Of a DNA stretch of 64,000 nucleotides, positions 4,236-43,217 are shown one piece after another. The stretch comes from an uncultured Bacteroidota bacterium. Lineage in GTDB: Bacteria > Bacteroidota > Bacteroidia > Bacteroidales > SZUA-534. A program made the translations under genes and the position numbers. Each line of letters opens with the position of its first letter. Within the stretch, counting starts at the first letter, position 1. Location of the stretch: assembly GCA_946414435.1 (NCBI GenBank), contig CAMKOM010000009.1, forward strand, positions 17,277 through 81,276, given 5' to 3'. A model generated the notes under the pieces. That model made no database searches. It was not told the origin of the DNA and saw nothing but the letters and a program-made list of their open reading frames with translations.

Positions 4236-6071
4236 ATGGCTAACGACGTAACAATCAGCCGCCGCCAGTTCCTGAAGACCTTGGGCGGGGGCATAGCGGC
4301 AGCAGCGGCAGTTTCGGCTTGCGGCAGCGGCAATCAAAAATCAGCGGTTTCGAAAAGCGCTAGCGGTGATTCTGAAGGCCAGATGACCTACCGCACTGAC
4401 CTTCACGGGCAACAGGTGTCGCTGTTGGGCTACGGCTGTATGCGATTCCCAACCAAAGGTGGCCTGAGTGGCCGCGAAGACCGCAACGCCGAACTCGACC
4501 AAGAGCAAATCAACCGGTTGATTGACTATGCGATAGAGCACGGAGTCAACCTTTTCGACACGTCGCCGGCCTATTGCCAGGGCAAGTCGGAAGGCGCGCT
4601 CGGCAAGGCCTTGAGCCGCCATAATCGCAGCGAGTTCTTGGTGTCGACCAAACTGTCGAACTTTGCAAACAGCACCCGCGAGTCGTCGATGGCAATGTAC
4701 AAGAAGTCGTTCCAGGAGTTGCAGGTCGATTATATTGACTACTACCTTCTTCACGGCATTGGCAGCAAGCAGCAGATGCAGTCGCGCTATGTCGATAACG
4801 GAATGCTGGATTTCCTTGTCGGCGAGCGCGAGGCTGGACGTATCCGTAACCTTGGGTTCTCGTTTCACGGCGACAAGGAAGGCTTCGACTATCTGCTCGC
4901 CCTGAACGAAACCTATCATTGGGATTTCATTCTGATTCAGCACAATTTTGTCGATTGGAATCACGCTGCCGCGATGAATTCGCGCAATCTGAATTCCGAA
5001 TACACCTACACCGAACTCGAGAAACGCAACATTCCGGTTCTTGTAATGGAGCCGCTTTTGGGCGGCCGGTTGGCCAACCTTAACGACCACGCCACGGCTT
5101 TGCTCAAACAGCGTGAGCCCGATGCCAGCGTGGCTTCGTGGGCGTTCCGTTTCGCAGGGTCGCAGCCGCGAATACTGTCGGTCTTGAGCGGAATGACCTA
5201 TATGGAGCATTTACAGGACAACGTGAAAACATACTCGCCGCTCAAACCCCTGTCTGACGACGATTTGCGTCTTCTTGCCCATATTGCCGACATTTACGCG
5301 TCGTTCCCAATGGTGCCCTGCAACACTTGCCAGTATTGTATGCCGTGCCCCTACGGACTCGACATTCCGGGCATTTTCAGCCACTACAACAAGTGCATCA
5401 ACGAAGGTCTCATCATTGAAGACCGCCAGGACCCCGAGTACAAAAAAGCCCGCAAGGCGTTCCTTATCGGCTACGACCGCAGCGTGCCGCGCCTGCGACA
5501 GGCCAACCACTGCATTGGCTGCAACCACTGCCTGCCCGAGTGCCCGCAGCGCATCAACATTCCGCGCGAAATGCAGCATATCGACCGTTTTGTCGAGGAA
5601 TTGAAGCGCGACGGAGCCGAACTTGGCACCACTGTCATTCTGTCGGCGCTTTCGCGGACACTCGACGAAGGACGCTATTCGTGCGTCATATATAATAATG
5701 GCGAGACACGTACCTTCAGACAGCGCGGAGTGCTCGACCTGCACGACCTTGTCAGTGAGAAAAGCGAGTTCCTGCGTGGAGCGCTTATGTCCGACAAGAT
5801 TGTTGGCAAAGGCGCCGCAGCCTTGATGGTGCTTGGCGGAGTGAAGGCCGTACGTACCGAAGTTATCAGTACGCCGGCACTTAAAATGCTAACCGACAAT
5901 GGTATAAAGGCTGTGTTCGACACCGAAGTGCCATACGTCGAAAACCGCCGGAAAACAGGGCAGTGTCCGCTCGACAATCGTCTGCAAAACGTTTCAACGC
6001 CAAACGAAAGTTGGCCTGTAATTCAGCAGTTTGTAGCCGATTTACGCGCCGGAGTTGATGTGATGCAGTAG
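4236..6071 (+). CDS. Tat-signal lipoprotein: aldo/keto reductase + Cys-rich [4Fe-4S]-type region + C-terminal DUF1893-like domain
   Basis: ORF track starts at TTG 4227; I prefer ATG 4236. There is a twin-arginine motif SRRQFLK followed by the lipobox AVSAC. The AKR core includes GVNLFDTSPAY and IDYYLLHG. Cys clusters are CNTCQYCMPCP and CIGCNHCLPECP. The tail KIVGKGAAALMVLGG...CPLD resembles DUF1893 from memory. Confidence 0.75.
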   Translation: MANDVTISRRQFLKTLGGGIAAAAAVSACGSGNQKSAVSKSASGDSEGQMTYRTDLHGQQVSLLGYGCMRFPTKGGLSGREDRNAELDQEQINRLIDYAIEHGVNLFDTSPAYCQGKSEGALGKALSRHNRSEFLVSTKLSNFANSTRESSMAMYKKSFQELQVDYIDYYLLHGIGSKQQMQSRYVDNGMLDFLVGEREAGRIRNLGFSFHGDKEGFDYLLALNETYHWDFILIQHNFVDWNHAAAMNSRNLNSEYTYTELEKRNIPVLVMEPLLGGRLANLNDHATALLKQREPDASVASWAFRFAGSQPRILSVLSGMTYMEHLQDNVKTYSPLKPLSDDDLRLLAHIADIYASFPMVPCNTCQYCMPCPYGLDIPGIFSHYNKCINEGLIIEDRQDPEYKKARKAFLIGYDRSVPRLRQANHCIGCNHCLPECPQRINIPREMQHIDRFVEELKRDGAELGTTVILSALSRTLDEGRYSCVIYNNGETRTFRQRGVLDLHDLVSEKSEFLRGALMSDKIVGKGAAALMVLGGVKAVRTEVISTPALKMLTDNGIKAVFDTEVPYVENRRKTGQCPLDNRLQNVSTPNESWPVIQQFVADLRAGVDVMQ

Positions 6072-33260: not shown

Positions 33261-34442
33261 ATGAGCGCGAAAATTATACTGAAATCGGGAAAGGAACAGT
33301 CGGTCAAGCGGCTGCATCCGTGGATTTTTTCGGGGGCCATCAAGCAGATGCAGGGCTCGCCGAAGGAAGGCGACCTTGTGTCGGTTTACGACAACCAGGG
33401 CGGTTTCCTTGCTTGGGGGCACTATCAGCCGTCGTCAATCGCCGTGCGGATTCTGACTTTCGAGAACACCGTTCCCGATGCCGCTTTTTTTCGCCACAAG
33501 ATTGCCAACGCCATTGAGTTCCGCCGCCGAATGGGCTTTTTCGACAGCGCCGACACCAATGTTTTCCGCATCATCCACGGCGAAGGCGACGGCCTGTCGG
33601 GGCTTGTGGCCGATTACTACAACGGCACGGTGGTTTTTCAGGCGCACTCTGTCGGGATGTATCTGATGAAAGACGCCATTGCCGAAATCCTGAAAGACCT
33701 TTTGGGCGACAAGGTGCGCTGCATCTATGACAAAAGCTCGCAGACACTGCCGTTCAAAGCTGATATTGAACCTGTTGACGGATATCTGTTCGGCAAACCT
33801 GATACAAACATCGTTCTTGAGCACGGTCATAAGTTTGAGATTGATTGGGAAAACGGCCAGAAAACGGGCTTCTTCATCGACCAGCGCGAGAACCGCCAAC
33901 TGCTTGCCAACTACTCGGCAGGGCGCACGGTCTGCAACATTTTCGGCTACACGGGCGGTTTCAGCGTGTATGCCTTGGGCGCAGGGGCAAAGGCGGTGCA
34001 CACCGTCGATGTGTCGAAACCTGCCATCGCCCAAACCGACCGCAATGTGGCGCTGAACTTCCCCGATTGCTCTAACCATCAGGGTTTTGCGCTCGACGCT
34101 TTCGACTTTTTCGCGCAGACTACCGACAAGTACGATCTTATAATTCTTGACCCGCCAGCCTTTGCCAAGCACCAGAGCGCGCTCAACAACGCACTGCAGG
34201 GCTACAAGCGCATCAACCAGCGGGCGCTTGAGCAGATTGAGCCAGGCGGCGTGCTGTTCACCTTCTCGTGCTCGCAGGCGGTGAGCACGGAAGATTTCCG
34301 CAAGGCCGTGTTTGCCGCTTCGGTCAACGCGCGGCGCAATGTGCGCATCCTTCACCAACTCTCGCAGCCCATCGACCACCCAATAGGTATGTTCCACCCT
34401 GAAAGTGAGTATCTTAAGGGTTTGGTACTTTATGTGGAGTAG
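33261..34442 (+). CDS. rlmI: class I SAM-dependent 23S rRNA m5C methyltransferase (RlmI-like)
   Basis: PUA-like N-terminus (HPWIFSGAI), GLVADYY, the SAM motif NIFGYTGGFS and DLIILDPPAF. Confidence 0.8.
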   Translation: MSAKIILKSGKEQSVKRLHPWIFSGAIKQMQGSPKEGDLVSVYDNQGGFLAWGHYQPSSIAVRILTFENTVPDAAFFRHKIANAIEFRRRMGFFDSADTNVFRIIHGEGDGLSGLVADYYNGTVVFQAHSVGMYLMKDAIAEILKDLLGDKVRCIYDKSSQTLPFKADIEPVDGYLFGKPDTNIVLEHGHKFEIDWENGQKTGFFIDQRENRQLLANYSAGRTVCNIFGYTGGFSVYALGAGAKAVHTVDVSKPAIAQTDRNVALNFPDCSNHQGFALDAFDFFAQTTDKYDLIILDPPAFAKHQSALNNALQGYKRINQRALEQIEPGGVLFTFSCSQAVSTEDFRKAVFAASVNARRNVRILHQLSQPIDHPIGMFHPESEYLKGLVLYVE

Positions 34443-34561: not shown

Positions 34562-34613
34562 ATTCCCCCGAAAAAGTGTAAGTTTTTGTGATTATTCCCC
34601 CGAAAAAGTGTAA
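34562..34613 (+). repeat. two copies of a 20-bp direct repeat ATTCCCCCGAAAAAGTGTAA
   Basis: Identical copies at 34562-34581 and 34594-34613. Confidence 0.9.
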
Positions 34614-34615
34614 CC

Positions 34616-34736
34616 AAAAATCTTCAAACGGCACAACAAAAAACCTTCAAACGGCACAACAAAAAATCTTCAAACGGCACAACAAAAAACCTTCAAATGG
34701 CACAATAAAAAATCTTCAAATGGCACAATAAAAATG
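34616..34736 (+). repeat. iteron-like tandem array, 5 x 23 bp (CTTCAAAYGGCACAAYAAAAAAY)
   Basis: CTTCAAA starts at 34622, 34645, 34668, 34691 and 34714, exactly 23 nt apart. The junction base alternates T/C, and the last two units carry two C-to-T changes. Confidence 0.9.
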
Positions 34737-35085
34737 CGTAACTATTTTGATTATTAGCAAAATAAGCCATTGGTTAAGGAAGGCCTTTTTTGGTGACACT
34801 TTTCTATGAAAAATAGAAATTGTGCAGTTGCCAACTGCACAACCAAGCAGCAAAACATCTTTCGTATTAAAATACGAATTATTAACTTTGTCAACAAAGA
34901 CGCATAGTTATGGATGATTATAAAATGCTTCCATACAAGTCTTTTCTTATTTTTTACATATGTAGATGATGACCTTACCAAACAGCCACAAACTTCCAAT
35001 CCCCACCCTTGCAGGAATTTTCAGCAATACCAGCGCTGCATACAAGTTTTATTGGTTTGTGGCATTGTTGGTATTGTTGTAAAAG

Positions 35086-35114
35086 AGCGCAACCCGACGG
35101 GCTGCGCTTTTTTT
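35086..35114 (+). terminator. rho-independent terminator following a 38-codon orphan ORF
   Basis: AGCGCA-CCC / GGG-TGCGCT stem followed by TTTTTTT. Confidence 0.65.
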
Positions 35115-35231
35115 GTGAGTATAATCATTGACCAATGTCAAACCGTTTGATGTCATTTTTCACTATGCGCAGATTTGGAATGGCTCGTCATATCATCCTT
35201 TTTTTTTATTTTTCATGCATAATCAAATAAT

Positions 35232-36599
35232 ATGGATAATAAAGAAGAATTATACAAAAAGGAACTGCATGCTTTACTTGAAAAGCATGACCGTCTGAAC
35301 GCACAAGAGGAACAGTTTAATGTGTTTACTACATTGCGCCAAGCGTATGACGAAAGGTATTTGCACTCGAGATTCATAACTTCAATTTTATATTATCCCA
35401 AAGACGAACAAGACTCAAAAGGTAAACACGATCTAAAAGGTAACCACGGATTGGGAACTTATCCATTAGAAGTTTTTTTGAGAGCAATAGGAAGCCAATT
35501 TGAATGTACAGGCGAAACGGTAATCAAACCGAATCCGGATGATAATTGGCGTGAAGAAGAAAATATTGATATTCTTATTGATAAACTTAAAAACAAGAAA
35601 AAAGAAAAATGTGCAATAATTATAGAAAACAAGATTTATGCACAAGACAGTGGAGAGCGTCAATTAAACAGATATTACGAAATCGTCAGAAATAATTTCA
35701 AATACGAACCTTCGAATATCGAAGTATATTATTTGACTCTTGATAGGCACAAACCGTCTGATAATAGTTTAGGGGAAACTTTAATAGTGGAAGGTGAAGA
35801 CCATAATCGGATAAAGACTGTCCGTTGCATTGAATATAAAACAGAGATTGTAAACTGGTTGACAGAAATCAAGAAATCTGCAAATGGTTTCTTACTGAAT
35901 GCAATTGAACAATACTTAGCATTAGTAACAAAACTTACATGCGATGTCGATTACAATAAGGAACTGACTGAGTTTGTTTGCGAAAATTGGGAAAATACAA
36001 GGGAAATTGTTCTAAACAAAGACAATAAGTATCCTGAAAAAGAAAAAGAATATAAGATTTTAAGAAATGACATTTACCATGTGTATTGGCATATTATAAC
36101 GGATTTCCTAAATGATTTATGCAGCAAACTGAACGAAATGCTAATTGCTAACGGATATGAAAAAGCATATTCAGAACGGCAAATCCATGAATGGGTTACG
36201 GAAATTGTACACACGAGTAAGCAAGATATTCCATTACATTTCCTGTTTAATGACAAAAACGGTGTTTGCTGGTCGTTACAGGCAGACAACCATGGAGGAA
36301 AGGGATTTTTTATCGGAGTTGAAAAAAAATACCGCAATAAGAGATTAGATTTTACCGATTCTTGTATTCCATATGGCAAAAAAAATAATGAAGACGATAA
36401 TTGGCGCTACCGCAAATATTTTTGTGACGAAATAAAAATCAACTTATGGAATTGTCGGGAAAAAACAAAAGACAAAACAAAAGACAAAACAAAAGAAACT
36501 GAAACTATTGAAACTATCCTAAAAAATAAAGACAGTATCATAAGGCAATATGTATCAATTGTTAAATCAGAACTCGGAAAATTTGGCACAAAGAAATGA
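35232..36599 (+). CDS. PD-(D/E)XK nuclease-family protein with uncharacterised C-terminal half
   Basis: N-terminal FNVFTTLRQAYDERYLHSRFITSILYY, then D...ExK core NIDILID...CAIIIENKIYAQDSGERQLNRYY and VYYLTLDRHKPS. This pattern matches the PDDEXK_4-type family as I remember it. Residues ~200-455 are unassigned. Confidence 0.6.
   Translation: MDNKEELYKKELHALLEKHDRLNAQEEQFNVFTTLRQAYDERYLHSRFITSILYYPKDEQDSKGKHDLKGNHGLGTYPLEVFLRAIGSQFECTGETVIKPNPDDNWREEENIDILIDKLKNKKKEKCAIIIENKIYAQDSGERQLNRYYEIVRNNFKYEPSNIEVYYLTLDRHKPSDNSLGETLIVEGEDHNRIKTVRCIEYKTEIVNWLTEIKKSANGFLLNAIEQYLALVTKLTCDVDYNKELTEFVCENWENTREIVLNKDNKYPEKEKEYKILRNDIYHVYWHIITDFLNDLCSKLNEMLIANGYEKAYSERQIHEWVTEIVHTSKQDIPLHFLFNDKNGVCWSLQADNHGGKGFFIGVEKKYRNKRLDFTDSCIPYGKKNNEDDNWRYRKYFCDEIKINLWNCREKTKDKTKDKTKETETIETILKNKDSIIRQYVSIVKSELGKFGTKK
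36462..36497 (+). repeat. in-frame 12-bp tandem repeat (AAAACAAAAGAC x3, last unit ...GAA) encoding KTKD KTKD KTKE
   Basis: Read directly from the sequence. It lies near the C-terminus of the PD-(D/E)XK protein. Confidence 0.85.
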
Positions 36600-37063
36600 A
36601 TAGCGAAACAAACAATCAGAATGAAATAGAATCTTCGGAGTATTGCATAAAAGGTACCGACGAAGAGTTTGAATACTATAAAAGGCTTGTCGAAAGTGGT
36701 GAAGACGAGGATTCTATTAGCGAATTGAAAAATATATACAGCGAGGAGAAGGAACTACTGGCAAACAAGCCATCGGGTGATGTGCCGACCTTTATTGCCG
36801 ATTTCGCTTACCCGATGTATATTTTGGCAACAATGTACATGCAGCGTAACGAACACGAAAAGGCATTGCCGCTTTTGGAAAAAGCATTGCCGTTATTCAG
36901 GGTTTTGGAAATCACGGAATCTGATTATTCCTATCAGCGCTATTATGCAATGGAGCAAATGATAGAATGTCTGCACAAACTCGGTAACGAGCCTTTGGCC
37001 CTTTACTACGAGTACGAGTTGTTGTATCTTAAGAGCGTTTTGCCAAAGGAACACAACAAATAA
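36596..37063 (+). CDS. TPR-like hypothetical protein
   Basis: 155 aa. The start overlaps the upstream stop (ATGA). The helical repeat region is ILATMYMQRNEHEKALPLLEKALPLFRVLE...YYAMEQMIECLHKLGNEPLALYY. Confidence 0.45.
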   Translation: MNSETNNQNEIESSEYCIKGTDEEFEYYKRLVESGEDEDSISELKNIYSEEKELLANKPSGDVPTFIADFAYPMYILATMYMQRNEHEKALPLLEKALPLFRVLEITESDYSYQRYYAMEQMIECLHKLGNEPLALYYEYELLYLKSVLPKEHNK

Positions 37064-37326
37064 TGGGGAGAGAATGGCAATGCCCCAAATGTCAAACTCG
37101 GCGGAATCGGCTAAAAAAAACGTCGGTTCCGCCCGTTGCAGAGATGCGCGGTTTGCTGGAGCAGGAGGATGAATGCAAAGAAGATTTTAGAAAGCTCTTT
37201 AAGGTGTGGGATACGACCTTTGAAATTAAATTTGAGGCAATCTTCCCTAAAATTCATCTAATTTCCCATCTTTTTCAATTATTCACGTTTATTTTAACTA
37301 TTTTTAAATCGAATAGAGATGTGTTA
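37063..37326 (+). CDS. short hypothetical ORF with a single CxxC (QCPKCQ), start overlapping upstream stop (TAATG)
   Basis: Only the translational-coupling geometry supports it. In the ORF track it reads through into the hsdS fragment. Confidence 0.25.
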
Positions 37327-37494
37327 ATGAACTACCAGCGTTTAGGCGACTATATCAGAGATGTGAATGCACGTAATCGGGATTTGAAAGTTACGAAACC
37401 AATGGACATAAATATCGACAAGCATTTTATGTCTTCGGTTGCAAATGCCATTGGAACAGATTTGTCCACATACAAACTCGTTGTGGTGGTATAG
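37327..37494 (+). pseudogene. hsdS: type I restriction-modification specificity subunit (HsdS), N-terminal ~55-codon fragment
   Basis: MNYQRLGDYIRDVNARNRDLKVTKPMDINIDKHFMSSVANAIGTDLSTYKLV matches Bacteroidales HsdS N-termini as I remember them. It then terminates abruptly. Confidence 0.65.
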
Positions 37495-37580: not shown

Positions 37581-38585
37581 ATGAACGAAATCCAATTCAT
37601 ACTATACCAACTGCCCGAGGAGGAGGGCAAGGTGCAGGTGGTTATCAAAGATGAGACCATTTGGGCTACGCAAAAGGCTATGGCGCAATTGTTTGGTGTG
37701 GGTGTGCCTGCCATCAGCAAGCACCTGAAGAATATTTTTGAAGAGAAGGAGTTGGAAGAACAAGTGGTTGTTTCCAAAATGGAAATAACCACTCAACACG
37801 GTGCCATTGATGGGAAAGTACAACGAAATGAAACTGCATTCTATTCCCTCGATGCGGTCATTGCTGTCGGCTACCGAGTTTCGTCTGCAAGAGCCACCAA
37901 GTTCCGCATTTGGGCAACCAAAGTCTTGAACGAGTTCATTCGCAAGGGCTTTGTGCTGGATGATAATCGACTAAAGCAAGGCGAAAATGTGTTCGGAAAA
38001 GATTATTTCCGTGAGTTGTTAGAAAGGGTTCGTTCCATCCGTGCCAGCGAACGACGTATCTGGCAGCAAATCACTGATATCTATGCGGAATGCAGTATCG
38101 ATTATGACAAGAATGCCCCCACAACCCACGATTTCTACGCTATGATTCAGAACCGTTTCCACTACGCCATCACAGGGCAAACGGCGGCAGAAATCATCTA
38201 CACAAAAGCCGACCACAAGAAAGCCAATATGGGACTGACAACCTGGAAAAACGCACCAGATGGCAGAATATTAAAATCGGATGTGTCAGTTGCAAAGAAT
38301 TACTTGTCGGAACAGCAAATCAGAAAGTTGGAACGTGCTGTAACAGGTTTCTTTGACTATATAGAAGATCTTATTGAGAATGAAAATACATTCGATATGT
38401 CTCAATTTTCGGATAGCGTGAATGCCTTTCTTACTTTCAGAAACTACAAGATATTGAAAGGGAAAGGAAGTGTGTCAAAAGCGGAAGCTGATGCAAAAGC
38501 AGAGGGTGAATACGATATTTTTAACAAAACTCAACCCATTATTTCCGACTTCGACAAGGAAATCAAACGATTGAAAGGTGAATAG
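37581..38585 (+). CDS. rhuM: RhuM-family virulence/Fic-DOC-associated protein
   Basis: The N-terminus IQFILYQLPEEEGKVQVVIKDETIWATQKAMAQLFGVGVPAISKHLKNIFEEKEL is the characteristic RhuM start. These genes commonly sit between hsdS and hsdR. Confidence 0.8.
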   Translation: MNEIQFILYQLPEEEGKVQVVIKDETIWATQKAMAQLFGVGVPAISKHLKNIFEEKELEEQVVVSKMEITTQHGAIDGKVQRNETAFYSLDAVIAVGYRVSSARATKFRIWATKVLNEFIRKGFVLDDNRLKQGENVFGKDYFRELLERVRSIRASERRIWQQITDIYAECSIDYDKNAPTTHDFYAMIQNRFHYAITGQTAAEIIYTKADHKKANMGLTTWKNAPDGRILKSDVSVAKNYLSEQQIRKLERAVTGFFDYIEDLIENENTFDMSQFSDSVNAFLTFRNYKILKGKGSVSKAEADAKAEGEYDIFNKTQPIISDFDKEIKRLKGE

Positions 38586-38732: not shown

Positions 38733-38923
38733 GCAATGCTGTGGAACCTTTTCTCTCATTTTTCCAAGCATTCTGTTGTATAGTTTCCGCTTGAATACCA
38801 CTGCCATAACTTATTGAAATTTGGCAAAATATATAATGATTTGCAGTTTCCGCAAAATGTTGCGGTTTGTTTCAAATCTTCACCTTTGTTTTATATTCTT
38901 ATGTACATTTAACAATAAACGCG

Positions 38924-40033
38924 TTACCAATCTTCCCCAAGAACATAACAGGTATTCTTGCTGCCTTCCGCACCTTTTACCAAAACACCTTTGCCAACCA
39001 AATCGTTGATGTCACGGAGTGCGGTGGCTTGCGAGGTTTTGCAGATTTTAGCCCACTTGTCGGTTGTGAGTTTGCCTTCGAATCCGTCCCACAATTTGTT
39101 CACAACCTTAACCTGGCGCTCGTTCATAGCCACATTGCGGTGCTCTTGCCAAAACAACGATTTTTTTACCACGCGGCTGACAACAACTTCGCTGTGTTCC
39201 ATTGCACCTTTTAAGGTTTGAAGAAACCATTCAAGCCACAATGTAATATCAACATTGCCCACTGTGGTGTTTTCCAACGCTTCATAGTATTTGCTCTTAC
39301 TCTTAAGAATAGCGGCTGACATACTGTAGTAGCGATGTGGAATACCATCGGCACGGGCGAGCAGCATATCGGTGATTGTCCTGGTTAGTCGGCCATTTCC
39401 GTCGTCGAATGGATGGATGGCGACAAACCACAGATGCGCAACAGCCGCTTTCAGAACAGGGTCGGAAGTCTTTTCATTGTTAATCCAATCCAGAAAACGC
39501 GCCATCTCTTTTGGCACATCGGCTGATGCCGGGGCTTCGTAATGAACCTTCTCTTTGCCGAGCGTGCCAGAAACCACTTGCATTGGCTCTTCGCCAACTC
39601 GCCATCCCGCCACTGTTATGGGGGTAATGCCGCTTCGCCCAGTTGGAAACAAGGCTGCGTGCCAATTAAAAAGGCGCTGTTCGGTTAGTTCATCAGAATA
39701 GTTGCTGACAGCATCAATCATAACCTGCACAACACCATCAGTGTAATGGTCCGGCTCAGGTAGTCCTTCCGTTGAAATGCCGAGATGCCTGGCAACCGAA
39801 GACCGTACTCTATCGGCATTCAGCAAAACACCTTCAATCTCATTGGAACGGATAACATCTTCAGTCATCACGTCGAGTGATGTTTTTGTCTGAACTTCGA
39901 ATCCCAAGCCATCCATCATCCCTGTAATGCGCCCTTCCTGAAGACGCACTTCGGAAAGAAGGTTCATTATTTTGTCGGTTTCCCAACGAAAATTAGGCCA
40001 GTCGGGATATTGCCAGATGTAATGTGGTTTCAT
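38924..40033 (-). CDS. Fic family protein (DUF4172 N-terminal region, C-terminal wHTH)
   Basis: Fic motif HPFDDGNGRLTR. The N-terminus YIWQYPDWPNFRW is typical of DUF4172-Fic proteins. Confidence 0.9.
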   Translation of the reverse strand: MKPHYIWQYPDWPNFRWETDKIMNLLSEVRLQEGRITGMMDGLGFEVQTKTSLDVMTEDVIRSNEIEGVLLNADRVRSSVARHLGISTEGLPEPDHYTDGVVQVMIDAVSNYSDELTEQRLFNWHAALFPTGRSGITPITVAGWRVGEEPMQVVSGTLGKEKVHYEAPASADVPKEMARFLDWINNEKTSDPVLKAAVAHLWFVAIHPFDDGNGRLTRTITDMLLARADGIPHRYYSMSAAILKSKSKYYEALENTTVGNVDITLWLEWFLQTLKGAMEHSEVVVSRVVKKSLFWQEHRNVAMNERQVKVVNKLWDGFEGKLTTDKWAKICKTSQATALRDINDLVGKGVLVKGAEGSKNTCYVLGEDW

Positions 40034-40129: not shown

Positions 40130-40933
40130 TCACTCGTGATAGTCATCATCCTTCCATTCAAACCTGATGGTTTCGGGCACCATATATTTGCCGATTTTGT
40201 AATCGATGTTCGCCTTGTGAGCCTGGCTTAGCTGAAAGCGCCGATGGATGCGGTACATCTTGCCGTCCTTGATAAAGTGAGCCCCCGTCTGATGAAAGCG
40301 GAAAGCGATGCCTTTCGATATGCACTGCTGGCGCACGTTGAGAACCCAGTCGTAGTTGCAGGGCCGCGCGTCAACACCCGACTCGCCGCTGACGGCCACT
40401 TCCTCAATCTGCGGGGTGAGGTAGGGCGTAAGGTCAATATTGGTGAGCATTGGCGCCACCATAATGCTCTTATGCTTGATGGGAGCCGACAGAAATATCG
40501 GCAGTCGGTAATCGGCCATTTCCTGGTCCTCGACGGTGCAGCCCACAAGCACATTGTCGTAGCCGTCGCCCCAGTCGTCGGGAATGCATTCCATAAAGCG
40601 GTCGATGCGTTTGGTGAAGAAATAGAACCAGAGGTCGCTCCGTTCTTTCATCATCTTCCAGCACTCGGGGCGCCACGCGTCGGCGTCTTTCAGCAGAAAA
40701 TCGGAGGTGAAGCAGGTGAAAACCATCTTGCCGCTTTCAATCTTCCAGCTCTTGTCGCGCTTCCGCTTTACAGGAAGGTTGAAGTTGGCGGTTTTCCGAC
40801 ATTCCTGGGTCGATATTTCGCTGCCGTACATCTCGTCTTGTCGGTACACGTAGCAATGCTTGCACCCTGAGCTAATCTTGGTGCAGCCGTGCCACGGATT
40901 CCAGTCGGCGTATATTTCCCAGTTTTCTGCCAT
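40130..40933 (-). CDS. DUF5131 (phage Gp37/Gp68) family three-Cys-motif protein
   Basis: The N-terminus WNPWHGCTKISSGCKHCY matches the conserved WNP..GC...S.GC..CY start of the family. Confidence 0.7.
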   Translation of the reverse strand: MAENWEIYADWNPWHGCTKISSGCKHCYVYRQDEMYGSEISTQECRKTANFNLPVKRKRDKSWKIESGKMVFTCFTSDFLLKDADAWRPECWKMMKERSDLWFYFFTKRIDRFMECIPDDWGDGYDNVLVGCTVEDQEMADYRLPIFLSAPIKHKSIMVAPMLTNIDLTPYLTPQIEEVAVSGESGVDARPCNYDWVLNVRQQCISKGIAFRFHQTGAHFIKDGKMYRIHRRFQLSQAHKANIDYKIGKYMVPETIRFEWKDDDYHE

Positions 40934-41002: not shown

Positions 41003-41136
41003 TTACAGCACTTTTTTTACCGCCATCAAGGCACAATTCCGCCGCTCATCGCCGTTGCCGCGAATCTCAACATACGGCAACCCAAACGTTTCCAGTTCGT
41101 TACGATATATGGTCGATAGTTTCTCGCGCATCGGGC
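41003..41136 (-). pseudogene. displaced 3'-end remnant of a nadR-type ribosylnicotinamide kinase gene
   Basis: A 118-bp ungapped match (41019-41136 vs 42703-42820) has 14 mismatches by my count. It retains the frame for 43 codons plus its own stop: PMREKLSTIYRNELETFGLPYVEIRGNGDERRNCALMAVKKVL*. Confidence 0.75.
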
Positions 41137-41143
41137 TGCTGAA

Positions 41144-42472
41144 TTAAATGAACGGTGCAAAATACACTGGCAGACAAGTCGTCGGGCCGTCTTTCTGATA
41201 ATCTTTGGCATAGAGCAAAAGCCGTTGGCCGATTCGTGATGAGAACTTGCTGCAAAACTCGTCGAGCGACCGATGAGTCTTGTAACCAGACGATTTCACT
41301 TCAATGGGGACTAACTTGTTGCCCCGCGATAAAAGGAAATCCACTTCATAATTGTGGTTGTTTCCGTCGGGAAAGGTGTAGTAAAACAACTCATTACCCG
41401 ATGTGCGAAGCATTTGTGCCACAAGGTTTTCGTAGACATAACCAAGATTGGCGTCCAACTTGTCTGACAACAGTTTTGTGTAAATTGTGTTTTCGGTTTG
41501 CCGCTTGTCCCAAAACGCCAAAGTGATAAACAGCCCTGTGTCGGTAAGAAATGCCTTGTAGCGTTCCGGGTCTTTTGTCAGACCCATTCCAACGTGTGGG
41601 TCGGTTGTGTGATAGGCAAGATTGACAACCATACTGTCGGCCATATCGGCCATAATTGTGTCCGCGCTGTTTGCTGGGCGTCCGTCAGTTGCGCTCTCAA
41701 CCTTGAACGACGATGCGTGCCGCGACAGTTGCGCAGGTATGTCCCTGAAAAAAAGCGATGCCGTCCCCGAAGGGTCAATCTTTCGGAAATCATCGTCATA
41801 AAGTTCTAGGATTTTTCGCTTCGTGTCGTCAACTTGCTGTAAATTATTTGTTTGGATATACGTGTCGATTGCTTGGGGCATTCCGCCAACAAGCATATAC
41901 AATCGCAAGTCGCGCATCCATTTGCGGTGGACGGCATCGCCCATCGGGCGCTTCATTGCATATGCTTCGCGAAGAAAATCGGCCGAGACATTGTCGCCTG
42001 TCGCCCACTTAAACTCATCAAAATCCATCGGATAGAGCGTTAGCCGATGTTCTTCGCTTGGTATGACAATATTCTGCACGTTCTTTTTAAGAGTCAGCAG
42101 TGAGCCTGTTTCGATATAGTGGTAGCGGCCATCTTTGACAAGATGCTTAATTGCTTGTCGCGCAAGCGGTTGCCTCTGAACTTCATCAAAAATTATTACA
42201 GAGCGGTGCTCGTGCAGTTTGACTTGGAAAATGTTCTGCAGACGGAAGAAGAAATAGTTCAAGTCGAGCATATTCTCAAACAGCTCGTCAATTTCGCGTG
42301 AAGCGATAGAGAAATCTATTAGGATATGTGTATCATACTCATTTTTAGCAAATTCTTCCGCCAAAGTCGATTTCCCTACACGTCGGGCACCTTTTATAAG
42401 CAGAGCATAATGGTCGGCCAAGTCAGCCTTCCATCGCAGCATTTCGTCATATAATTTCCGTTTGAAAACCAT
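41144..42472 (-). CDS. AAA-family ATPase with DUF4143-type C-terminal domain
   Basis: Walker A KGARRVGKST and Walker B VIIFDEVQ. The C-terminal region YEVDFLLSRGNKLVPIEVKSS is typical of DUF4143. Confidence 0.8.
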   Translation of the reverse strand: MVFKRKLYDEMLRWKADLADHYALLIKGARRVGKSTLAEEFAKNEYDTHILIDFSIASREIDELFENMLDLNYFFFRLQNIFQVKLHEHRSVIIFDEVQRQPLARQAIKHLVKDGRYHYIETGSLLTLKKNVQNIVIPSEEHRLTLYPMDFDEFKWATGDNVSADFLREAYAMKRPMGDAVHRKWMRDLRLYMLVGGMPQAIDTYIQTNNLQQVDDTKRKILELYDDDFRKIDPSGTASLFFRDIPAQLSRHASSFKVESATDGRPANSADTIMADMADSMVVNLAYHTTDPHVGMGLTKDPERYKAFLTDTGLFITLAFWDKRQTENTIYTKLLSDKLDANLGYVYENLVAQMLRTSGNELFYYTFPDGNNHNYEVDFLLSRGNKLVPIEVKSSGYKTHRSLDEFCSKFSSRIGQRLLLYAKDYQKDGPTTCLPVYFAPFI

Positions 42473-42500: not shown

Positions 42501-42508
42501 CAAAGGTA
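42501..42508 (-). promoter_or_regulatory. candidate -7 promoter box (TACCTTTG on minus strand)
   Basis: TAnnTTTG match 29 nt upstream of the ATPase ATG (42472). Confidence 0.4.
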
Positions 42509-42520
42509 TACTGAACAAAA

Positions 42521-42612
42521 CTTTCCGCAAAATTTTTTAAGCTGAATTATGTGCTTTCCGCAAATTTTTTGCAGGCAAAATATGCGCTTTCCGCAAAATG
42601 TTGTGGGTTTTG
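42521..42612 (+). repeat. three copies of CTTTCCGCAAA(A)T upstream of the ATPase promoter
   Basis: Copies start at 42521, 42554 and 42587. The third extends to CTTTCCGCAAAATGTTGTGGGTTTTG and matches 38846-38869. Confidence 0.85.
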
Positions 42613-42680: not shown

Positions 42681-43217
42681 TTAACCCTCGATAACCCTAC
42701 TCACCGCCTTCAAGGCACAATTCCGCCGTTCATCGCCGTTGCCGCAGACTTCGGCATACGGCAAACCAAACGTTTCCAACTCGTTACGATAGATGGCCGA
42801 TAGTTTATCGCGCATCGGGCCGCCGTTCTCACGCACGGGGTCGGGCACCCAGGGAATATCGGGCAGGCAAAGCAGATGCAGTGTGGCGGGGTGCGAACGT
42901 ATGGCTTCAGGAATCCACTCGGGGCAACGGCCGTAAACCACATCGAACCATACTTTGGTGATAATCAGGTCGGTATCGAACAAAACGGCAGAGTGCCCAG
43001 CGGCAATGGCGTGCTCAAATTCGGCAATCTGCAGGCGGGCAATCTCAACCACATCGTCGAAAGAGTAGGGGCGGCCCAACTGCTCAACGTAGCCGCGTGC
43101 CAGTTCTGGAACCCACGGAATATCAAGTGTTTGGGCTAAAAATCGGCACAGGTCGGTTTTGCCCGTCGATTCGGCACCGGTGGCCACAATTATCTTTGTA
43201 TCAGTTCTTTCCGCCAT
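42681..43217 (-). CDS. NadR-type ribosylnicotinamide kinase-like P-loop ATPase
   Basis: The start is trimmed to MAERTDTKIIVATGAESTGKT (P-loop). Synteny and a 28-nt overlap link it to the pnuC upstream. Confidence 0.7.
   Translation of the reverse strand: MAERTDTKIIVATGAESTGKTDLCRFLAQTLDIPWVPELARGYVEQLGRPYSFDDVVEIARLQIAEFEHAIAAGHSAVLFDTDLIITKVWFDVVYGRCPEWIPEAIRSHPATLHLLCLPDIPWVPDPVRENGGPMRDKLSAIYRNELETFGLPYAEVCGNGDERRNCALKAVSRVIEG

Follow-up and report, generated by a model that had tools for sequence, protein, structure and literature searches.

A nuclease gene whose stop codon overlaps the start codon of a small helical-repeat gene, in AT-rich DNA beside the stub of a Type I restriction-modification (RM) locus, raises the question of whether the two genes form a unit and, if so, what that unit is for. 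Such an arrangement occurs in the 64,000-nucleotide stretch analysed here, referred to as the window, which comes from contig CAMKOM010000009.1 (positions 17,277 to 81,276) of an uncultured bacterium of the Bacteroidales lineage SZUA-534; the genes encode a PD-(D/E)XK nuclease and a tetratricopeptide repeat (TPR)-like protein. A preliminary description of the sequence had grouped them with a short third open reading frame (ORF) carrying a CxxC motif and had suggested a defence module. We find that the nuclease gene and the TPR gene, which overlap translationally, are conserved and inherited together as a pair, to which the third frame does not belong. On balance, the two-gene unit is probably a self-contained, horizontally mobile cassette with its own promoter that serves defence against phages or mobile genetic elements, and the observations that form the basis of this reading are family membership, the conservation of both the catalytic residues and the pairing, effector swapping, mosaic recombination and defence-rich neighbourhoods.

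The nuclease family is already catalogued, as PDC-S26 in PADLOC and as PDDEXK_4 in Pfam, and the new elements are the layout of two genes, the alternation of the nuclease with an enzyme of a second family (here called U268) beside the TPR gene, and a fusion of TPR and U268 domains. None of these three is described in PADLOC 2.0 or in the literature searched, from which post-2023 or subscription-journal work may have escaped. The earlier impression that no named system has this composition therefore holds for the two-gene layout and fails for the nuclease, which is a catalogued PADLOC candidate.

The Nuclease and Its Family

The nuclease matches Pfam family PF14281 at 71.5 bits, against a cut-off of 22.3, with residues 29-228 falling on profile positions 1-181 of 183, and the same domain is present in 117 of 117 homologues. 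It is also matched by the PADLOC profile PDLC04983 of PDC-S26 (E = 2.5e-51), with residues 10-441 on profile positions 15-407 of 413, and by three more PDC-S26 profiles, so that the roughly 250 C-terminal residues once considered unassignable are covered. The core that had been read by eye as NIDILID...IIIENKIYAQD...QLNRYY is present, and its D113, E132 and K134 are invariant, as are E41, H45, N133, Q144 and Y148, in an alignment of 42 homologues with identities down to 23%. An AlphaFold2 (AF2) model of the protein (pLDDT 83, pTM 0.73) places the catalytic residues on adjacent strands of an N-terminal alpha/beta core, in which strands and helices appear to follow the order alpha-beta-beta-beta-alpha-beta. 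The protein is predicted to be an active nuclease. Structural matches to the model are weak. The top Foldseek matches are all PD-(D/E)XK proteins (LmuA, EcoO109I, MspJI, Can2/Card1 and NucS), the best of them being the LmuA nuclease 9hr5 with a non-significant E of 0.018 and a TM score of 0.14, and no significant match of the model to solved or viral structures was found.

Beyond the core, the protein diverges rapidly. Mean pairwise identity across the family is 41% in the core vs 20% in the C-terminal domain, and dN/dS is 0.2-0.45 in both domains; the C-terminal half of the nuclease probably carries the recognition of a target or a trigger. Two in-frame tandem repeats lie in the nuclease gene, one of a 12-bp unit in 2.9 copies (36462-36496), which encodes KTKDKTKDKTKE in a low-confidence loop, and one of an 18-bp unit in 2.1 copies (35407-35443), which encodes KGKHDLKGNH in a clade-specific insertion.

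The function of PF14281 was listed as "Unknown" in a 2012 survey of the superfamily (PMC3424549), and PDC-S26 is one of 145 untested defence candidates that were collected by "guilt-by-embedding" in RM, BREX and DISARM loci (bioRxiv 10.1101/2024.01.29.577857). In reference genomes we confirmed 416 relatives of the nuclease, and the best 80 loci form the basis of the locus comparison. Two distant members of the family (L037:643-1830 and L081:888-2136) have the catalytic N-terminal part and the C-terminal domain as separate adjacent ORFs, which may reflect a frameshift or a true separation of domains. A further distant homologue, with about 29% identity over the core, occurs in some 12 related IMG/VR contigs of 43-70 kb, viral or prophage (L124-L135), where it may be a phage-carried defence gene.

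The TPR Partner and the Overlapping Junction

The likeness of the 155-residue partner to TPR proteins, which had been noticed from its sequence, is borne out by structure prediction. The AF2 model has six helices (pLDDT 81), and the top 50 Foldseek matches are all TPR domains or designed TPR-like helical repeats, including KLC, LGN and HOP, with probabilities up to 1.0 and TM scores of about 0.45. At the level of sequence the resemblance is fainter. The best Pfam TPR model, TPR_1, scores 19.4 bits, below its cut-off of 27.8, a value that the homologue P0138 just reaches, and it is through residues 69-103 that a profile of the family finds more than 4,000 TPR proteins with multiple repeats. Full-length relatives are rare: a set of 5.8 billion clustered proteins contains 15 of them, and a set of 1.84 billion representatives about 10 clusters. 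An alignment of 13 homologues has 46 invariant columns. No PADLOC model matches the TPR protein.

The ATGA through which the two genes are chained can be read directly from the sequence, and nine distinct loci have exactly the same junction, AAAGAAATGAA. Selection on both genes is purifying (dN/dS 0.16-0.42), and because the junction is identical in all nine loci and both reading frames are so constrained, the overlap is not a matter of chance. The order of nuclease then TPR gene with a 4-bp overlap recurs in L001, L002-L006, L008-L011, L015, L017, L095-L097, L100, L101 and L111-L113, that is, in at least 10 sequence variants and at least five unrelated flanking contexts, which settles in the affirmative the earlier question of whether the genes are conserved as neighbours across genomes. 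The other early question, whether homologues keep the catalytic residues, has the same answer.

The pairing is a property of one clade. Within the best 80 loci, a TPR gene is found only beside nucleases that are at least 60% identical to the query, all of them from metagenome-assembled genomes of rumen or gut Bacteroidales. More distant nuclease homologues stand alone, in agreement with the single-gene definition of PADLOC, and are followed by heterogeneous genes unrelated to the TPR gene; some other small coupled partner in these homologues was considered and rejected on the same observation.

Effector Exchange and Domain Recombination

The TPR gene also has a second kind of partner. Homologues of the TPR gene adjoin U268-family genes in L012-L014, L104-L107, L108, L109, L114 and L116-L120, and in a single case, protein P0138, the TPR and U268 domains are fused. 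Apart from L115, whose sequence is too short to judge, only one locus (L110) has a TPR gene without an adjacent PDDEXK_4 or U268 gene. The exchange is best seen in L114 and L111, two operons whose upstream genes, TPR genes and flanks agree at 94-96% identity, one with a U268 gene in front of the TPR gene and the other with the nuclease gene in that place. The difference between them is a clean replacement of the effector gene, and the recombination breakpoint is the conserved ATGA junction. In L109, a U268 gene is paired with a TPR protein that is 92% identical to that of the window.

U268 proteins are about 240-290 residues long, with more than 130 members in Bacteroidota and the invariant motifs GxGNP...G.E and H.N.LS, and they match no Pfam, PADLOC or PDB profile. 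A fold like that of uracil-DNA glycosylases (UDG) is suspected, since the first U268 motif aligns with the motif of family-4 UDG, but the hhalign alignment of U268 with Thermus UDG (sequence verified as 1ui0) covers only 25 columns at a probability of 36%; a motif-level match of this kind is too weak for U268 to be accepted as a UDG-superfamily enzyme.

Exchange extends into the nuclease itself. Across nine distinct loci the identities of the nuclease N-terminal domain, the nuclease C-terminal domain and the TPR protein are uncorrelated (r ~0), and synonymous divergence contrasts sharply between the domains: L001 and L002 have a dS of 0.05 in the N-terminal domain and 1.17 in the C-terminal domain, whereas the values for L001 and L008 are 0.76 and 0.009. 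Since synonymous divergence itself contrasts in this way, the domains recombine rather than differ in constraint, and the sequences compared indicate that each nuclease domain, and likewise the TPR gene, recombines on its own.

Larger Operons and Defence Neighbourhoods

The larger TPR-linked clade has a four-gene block, in which a predicted membrane protein of 226 residues and a regulator with WYL and WCX domains precede the nuclease and TPR genes. The WYL regulator lies directly upstream in L001-L011, L015, L016, L095-L097 and L111-L114. The two loci closest to the window copy, L100 and L101, are also without the WYL and 226-residue genes, and no remnant was seen in them. The 226-residue protein at the head of the operon (L002:8337-9017; also in L001, L008, L015, L095, L111 and L114) is coiled-coil-like in its N-terminal half and has two transmembrane helices predicted in its C-terminal part, with no family match beyond a weak one to a PHROG of unknown function, and its gene is retained when the effector is swapped. 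In the short contig L110 (1-928), the TPR gene comes straight after the WYL gene and no effector gene separates the two; this locus is apparently a deletion derivative of the four-gene operon.

Genes around the cassette and its relatives are defence-flavoured, as the preliminary description had supposed, both in the window and elsewhere, with RhuM, Fic, hsdM and WYL genes as neighbours. Flanks of about 6 kb around the 80 reference loci contain a homologous WYL regulator in 18 cases and hsdM in six. The order hsdM-hsdS-nuclease(-hsdR) is found in L060, L084, L086 and L077, so that some relatives lie between hsdS and hsdR. Upstream of the cassette, L101 has an AbiEi gene and L100 a DUF1016/YhcG-like fragment. 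Around distant homologues (266 genes beside 73 of them) the commonest family is again WYL/WCX, with 11 genes, followed by Type I RM subunits, ResIII, Fic, RNase_T, AAA_21/AAA_15, AAA_14/DUF4143, PLDc_2 and HipA. WYL/WCX regulators have been described as sensors of single-stranded DNA and as companions of diverse defence systems (PMC9122601, PMC11662680).

The four-gene operons of L002-L011 and L095-L097 occupy one variable hotspot, between an amino-acid kinase gene and a block of AI-2E transporter, FMN_bind and TP_methylase genes. The same hotspot carries HEPN-MNT pairs, PemK toxins and AAA_14/DUF4143 genes, and nearby there is a Type I RM locus in which a DUF1016/YhcG gene is embedded. The site as a whole has the look of a defence hotspot of Bacteroidales.

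Edges of the Cassette

Composition and homology both delimit the cassette as a separate piece of DNA. The block had been singled out as the most AT-rich in the window, and positions 35560-36559 are indeed its lowest 1-kb stretch, at 31.5% GC against a window mean of 48.4%; the nuclease gene has 33% GC and the flanks about 52%. DNA homology with relatives is confined to the cassette. With loci of the WYL type it starts at 35226-35229 and ends at 37056, and with the closest relatives it reaches further to the left, to 34988 (L100) or 35074 (L101), and takes in an intrinsic terminator and a promoter-like element (Table 1). Right ends range over 37052-37135, and homology with L109 stops at 37135, at the end of a conserved hairpin that L109 also has.

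The terminator hairpin sequence is common to L100 and L101. It marks the left-hand portion of the sequence held in common with these closest relatives and shields the cassette from transcription that enters from upstream. The Bacteroidota promoter consensus is TTTG / TAnnTTTG, and the element that resembles it, whose sequence is conserved upstream in L100 and L101, would act as the promoter of the cassette.

Other origins for the island edge were considered. The window contains no tRNA, so that an origin at a tRNA or integration site is ruled out, and an Rfam scan of 34.3-37.7 kb gave nothing credible. A phage-borne origin was rejected because the cassette proteins have no PHROG match and 2.9 million viral contigs contain only 20 distant relatives of the nuclease and none of the TPR protein. 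A plasmid search returned only three distant matches.

The AT-rich spacer between an rlmI-like methyltransferase gene (33261-34442) and the cassette contains a 23-bp unit, AACAAAAAATCTTCAAACGGCAC, in 5.3 tandem copies with 93% matches (34612-34734), and just before this array an exact 20-nt direct repeat, ATTCCCCCGAAAAAGTGTAA, at 34562 and 34594. The 23-bp unit is absent from the rest of the window and matches nothing in Rfam; the array could consist of iteron-like sites or of binding sites for a regulator, or it could be a scar left by whatever element brought in the island.

Table 1. Features of the cassette, its surroundings in the window and U268-related genes of other loci (aa, amino acids).
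Feature	Position	Strand	Basis or remarks
Intrinsic-terminator hairpin followed by a U7 run	35081-35114	+	-18 kcal/mol, z = -3.7, 0/200 shuffles as stable
Bacteroidota-type promoter-like element: TTTG (35146-35149), 20-nt spacer, CAGATTTG (35170-35177)	35146-35177	+	Motif scan
PD-(D/E)XK nuclease gene (ORF A), 455 aa	35232-36599	+	Pfam PDDEXK_4, PADLOC PDC-S26
Catalytic codons of the nuclease	E41 35352-35354; D113 35568-35570; E132 35625-35627; K134 35631-35633	+	
Nuclease domains: core; long helical region; variable C-terminal alpha/beta domain	to about residue 215; residues 219-306; residues 318-449		AF2 model
ATGA stop/start overlap of nuclease and TPR genes	36596-36599	+	Read from sequence
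TPR-like gene (ORF B), 155 aa, three helical hairpins, disordered N-terminal ~20 residues	36596-37063	+	
N-terminal part of the "CxxC ORF" (ORF C), non-coding 3' flank and junction DNA, not a conserved gene	37063-37326	+	
Hairpin with 12-bp stem, right edge of the mobile unit, no U-tract after it	37099-37134	+	Fold of 37060-37140: -28 kcal/mol, z = -2.8
hsdS remnant, first ~52 codons of a Type I specificity subunit (37327-37482), then stop	37327-37494	+	
RhuM, full-length PDC-S05 member	37581-38585		E 3e-154
DUF4172-Fic-helix-turn-helix protein	38924-40033	-	PADLOC SoFic, E 4e-41
DUF5131 gene	40130-40933	-	
AAA_14/DUF4143 ATPase, PDC-S01	41144-42472	-	
U268-related genes in other loci	L012:5484-6290; L109:2349-3071; L114:3238-3963 and 4637-5530; protein P0138		

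Relation to Known Systems

The closest known entry is PDC-S26 itself. The window nuclease matches its profiles end to end with the catalytic motif intact, and members of that family lie in or beside Type I RM loci, as the cassette adjoins an hsdS remnant. PDC-S26 is, however, catalogued as a single gene, while in this clade a conserved TPR gene, for which PADLOC has no model, invariably overlaps the nuclease gene and is found with a second enzyme family as well.

Lamassu, whose LmuA effectors include Cap4-type PD-(D/E)XK proteins, has the same logic of a constant partner and interchangeable effectors in one operon frame, as L111 and L114 display. Here the cassette differs in that it contains no SMC/ABC ATPase of the LmuB kind, and its constant partner is the 155-residue TPR protein. 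Avs and other STAND NLR-like proteins combine a nuclease effector, an NTPase and a TPR sensor, and the cassette likewise joins a PD-(D/E)XK-type nuclease to a TPR module that could recognise a phage protein. Neither cassette protein has a STAND or P-loop NTPase domain, however, and the TPR part consists of only three hairpins on a separate polypeptide, in a total of about 600 residues vs more than 1,000. BcTir/Tpr was also considered as an analogue and set aside as not comparable, since its TPR protein carries an enzymatic domain of its own.

Two further likenesses concern context. The relatives described above resemble defence operons under WYL/WCX regulators of the BrxR/CapW class in that a WYL+WCX regulator stands immediately upstream of the nuclease, whereas the window copy has neither a WYL gene nor a remnant of one; the regulator of the relatives, at most a candidate member of the BrxR family proper, has PDB matches only to PafBC and generic WYL proteins. 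Genes embedded in Type I RM loci, such as PrrC, RloC, RhuM and YhcG/DUF1016, resemble the cassette in that it abuts an hsdS remnant and RhuM, with relatives between hsdS and hsdR. The difference is that RM is almost gone here: the window has no hsdM or hsdR, and functional coupling of the PrrC-EcoprrI type is therefore impossible at this locus.

Function of the Pair and Competing Explanations

How might such a pair act in defence? The nuclease would be a Mg2+-dependent PD-(D/E)XK endonuclease and the effector of the system, cutting invading DNA, with recognition supplied by its C-terminal half. The TPR protein, whose synthesis the ATGA overlap ties to that of the nuclease, would bind the effector and gate or direct its activity, a role that supposes a physical complex of the two. 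In relatives, the WYL repressor probably keeps the operon off until single-stranded DNA or damage signals appear, and the window copy would rely on its own promoter instead.

Several points weigh against assigning the cassette to defence in this way. The C-terminal domain of the nuclease has no recognisable fold match in structure searches, and in the literature searched PDC-S26 appears only as a count in a survey of pipolins, with no activity test. Most PDDEXK_4 members have no TPR partner, so that in general such a nuclease can do without one. The window copy is without both additional genes of the larger clade, and tblastn found no remnant of the WYL or 226-residue gene in the window. Association with WYL regulators is not unique to defence, since WYL proteins also control DNA-damage regulons. 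Finally, co-variation of TPR and nuclease alleles, taken as a proxy for an interface, gave no correlation (r ~0) and hence no signal of co-evolution.

More tentatively, we suggest that the window may hold the minimal form of an undescribed two-component immune family. Its constant element would be the three-hairpin TPR protein as sensor or adaptor; its effectors, exchanged at the fixed AGAAATGAA junction, would be either a PDDEXK_4 nuclease with a recombining recognition domain or a U268 protein, possibly glycosylase-like; and a WYL repressor and a membrane protein would be optional additions.

Among the competing explanations, the one that survives best is that the pair is a toxin and its antidote working by abortive infection, with the TPR protein restraining a toxic nuclease until a phage causes that protein to be lost or titrated, whereupon the freed nuclease kills the cell or arrests it. 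A small downstream gene coupled to a nuclease is the geometry of nuclease/immunity pairs, post-translational restraint is plausible in a copy that has no transcriptional regulator, and the persistence of the TPR gene in L110 after loss of the effector recalls orphan antidotes. Yet the prevalence of stand-alone family members indicates no intrinsic need for an antidote, the pairing and fusion of the TPR protein with an unrelated enzyme fold would be unusual for an antidote specific to one fold, and the alleles of TPR and nuclease do not co-vary. Because the TPR protein works with two unrelated folds and most family members are partnerless, a sensor or adaptor is favoured over a fold-specific antidote, and the toxin-antidote explanation appears unlikely.

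A role in DNA damage or repair, in which an inducible nuclease or glycosylase-like enzyme would stand under a repressor of the WYL type that senses single-stranded DNA, with the TPR protein as a scaffold, is harder to sustain and must be regarded as improbable. The patchy distribution, low GC, cassette-limited homology and domain-level recombination of the unit are what one expects of defence genes rather than of housekeeping repair. Relatives, moreover, lie embedded between hsdS and hsdR, and RhuM, Fic, AbiEi and HEPN/MNT genes are among the neighbours. What speaks for repair is that WYL/WCX regulators, which sense single-stranded DNA or damage (PMC11662680), accompany the family in those 18 of 80 loci, that RNase_T, Y-family polymerase and ExoVII genes occur among the neighbours, and that the U268 motif aligns locally with that of family-4 UDG, a link that was not confirmed.

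A slightly more improbable account still is that the nuclease alone is the whole system, as in PDC-S26, possibly as a Type IV modification-dependent enzyme, and that the TPR gene is an independent passenger. This would fit the PADLOC profiles, which cover the nuclease only, the dominance of stand-alone homologues, and the presence of a single nuclease with a variable C-terminal domain and no cognate methyltransferase; it is at odds with an overlap junction that is invariant in every variant of the clade, with purifying selection on the TPR gene, with the fusion protein P0138, and with the fact that the only TPR gene lacking a PDDEXK_4 or U268 neighbour is that of L110, where the effector was lost. 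An interbacterial toxin-immunity pair, with the nuclease as a secreted effector, is highly improbable, for although gut Bacteroidales carry many nuclease/immunity pairs on mobile DNA and the order of effector then small helical protein fits, the protein starts with its nuclease core and has no secretion, trafficking or PAAR/Rhs-type N-terminal domain, no type VI secretion genes lie nearby, and neighbours of the WYL and RM kinds suggest that the immunity is directed at invading DNA.

If the preferred reading of a defence cassette is right, its consequences go beyond this locus. As a natural two-gene variant of PDC-S26, the pair indicates that the nuclease can come under the control of a separate TPR subunit; the effector swap and the fusion point to the TPR protein as a common interaction hub and flag U268 as a probable new defence effector; and recombination at the level of domains marks the C-terminal half of the nuclease as the likely determinant of specificity. 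Few defence systems have been characterised in the phylum, and all three handles are testable in Bacteroides. If the pair does not protect, the locus is merely one more decayed RM neighbourhood.

The Third Frame and the Surrounding Island

The third ATG, at 37063, does overlap the stop codon of the TPR gene (TAATG), and the frame it opens had been counted as a short CxxC gene of the module, ending at 37326. In fact ORF C runs on to 37494, and its last 55 codons are the N-terminus of HsdS. Searches of Pfam, PADLOC, NCBIfam and PHROG gave no match to its first 88 codons, and the part up to 37326 is non-coding flank and junction DNA whose frame is open in this window by chance. In relatives the frame is broken: that of L109 diverges after 11 residues through an indel into 81 unrelated codons, that of L101 stops after 13 codons, and L100 has no such sequence. 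The DNA just after the TPR stop codon is conserved in L109 and L101, and "CPKC" is encoded within this conserved non-coding flank. A three-gene module was rejected since this frame lacks conservation and continues into the stub of hsdS.

The hsdS remnant, which begins 264 bp downstream of the cassette, matches residues 1-52 of the intact HsdS of L086 with 48% identity (tblastn, E = 4.8e-11) and the PADLOC model Specificity_I with E = 4e-5. Two HsdR and three HsdM probes detected no hsdR or hsdM remnant in the whole 64-kb window. The Type I RM locus has decayed to a 52-codon hsdS stub, and it is plausible that the cassette occupies the place where hsdM would be expected. Of the neighbours named in the preliminary description, the truncated hsdS, RhuM and Fic genes are present, and an hsdR stub was not found.

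Downstream of the stub, the island continues with further genes (Table 1). A representative of PDC-S05, the family of the RhuM protein, is reported to lower the plating of T7 and T5 about 1000-fold and that of T4 about 10-fold (PMC12881386), and RhuM may be the sole experimentally supported defence family in the island. The AAA_14/DUF4143 gene is bracketed by a 121-nt direct repeat, 88% identical, at 41019-41139 and 42703-42823, which suggests that this gene was inserted with or between duplicated sequence. A motif of the TTTCCGCAAAATGTTGCGG type recurs after the RhuM gene (38827-38868) and at 42502-42609, and beside the AAA_14 gene it is arrayed in tandem, as 2.4 copies of a 33-bp unit (42521-42599); the boundaries of island modules may have in it a common terminator or recombination signal.

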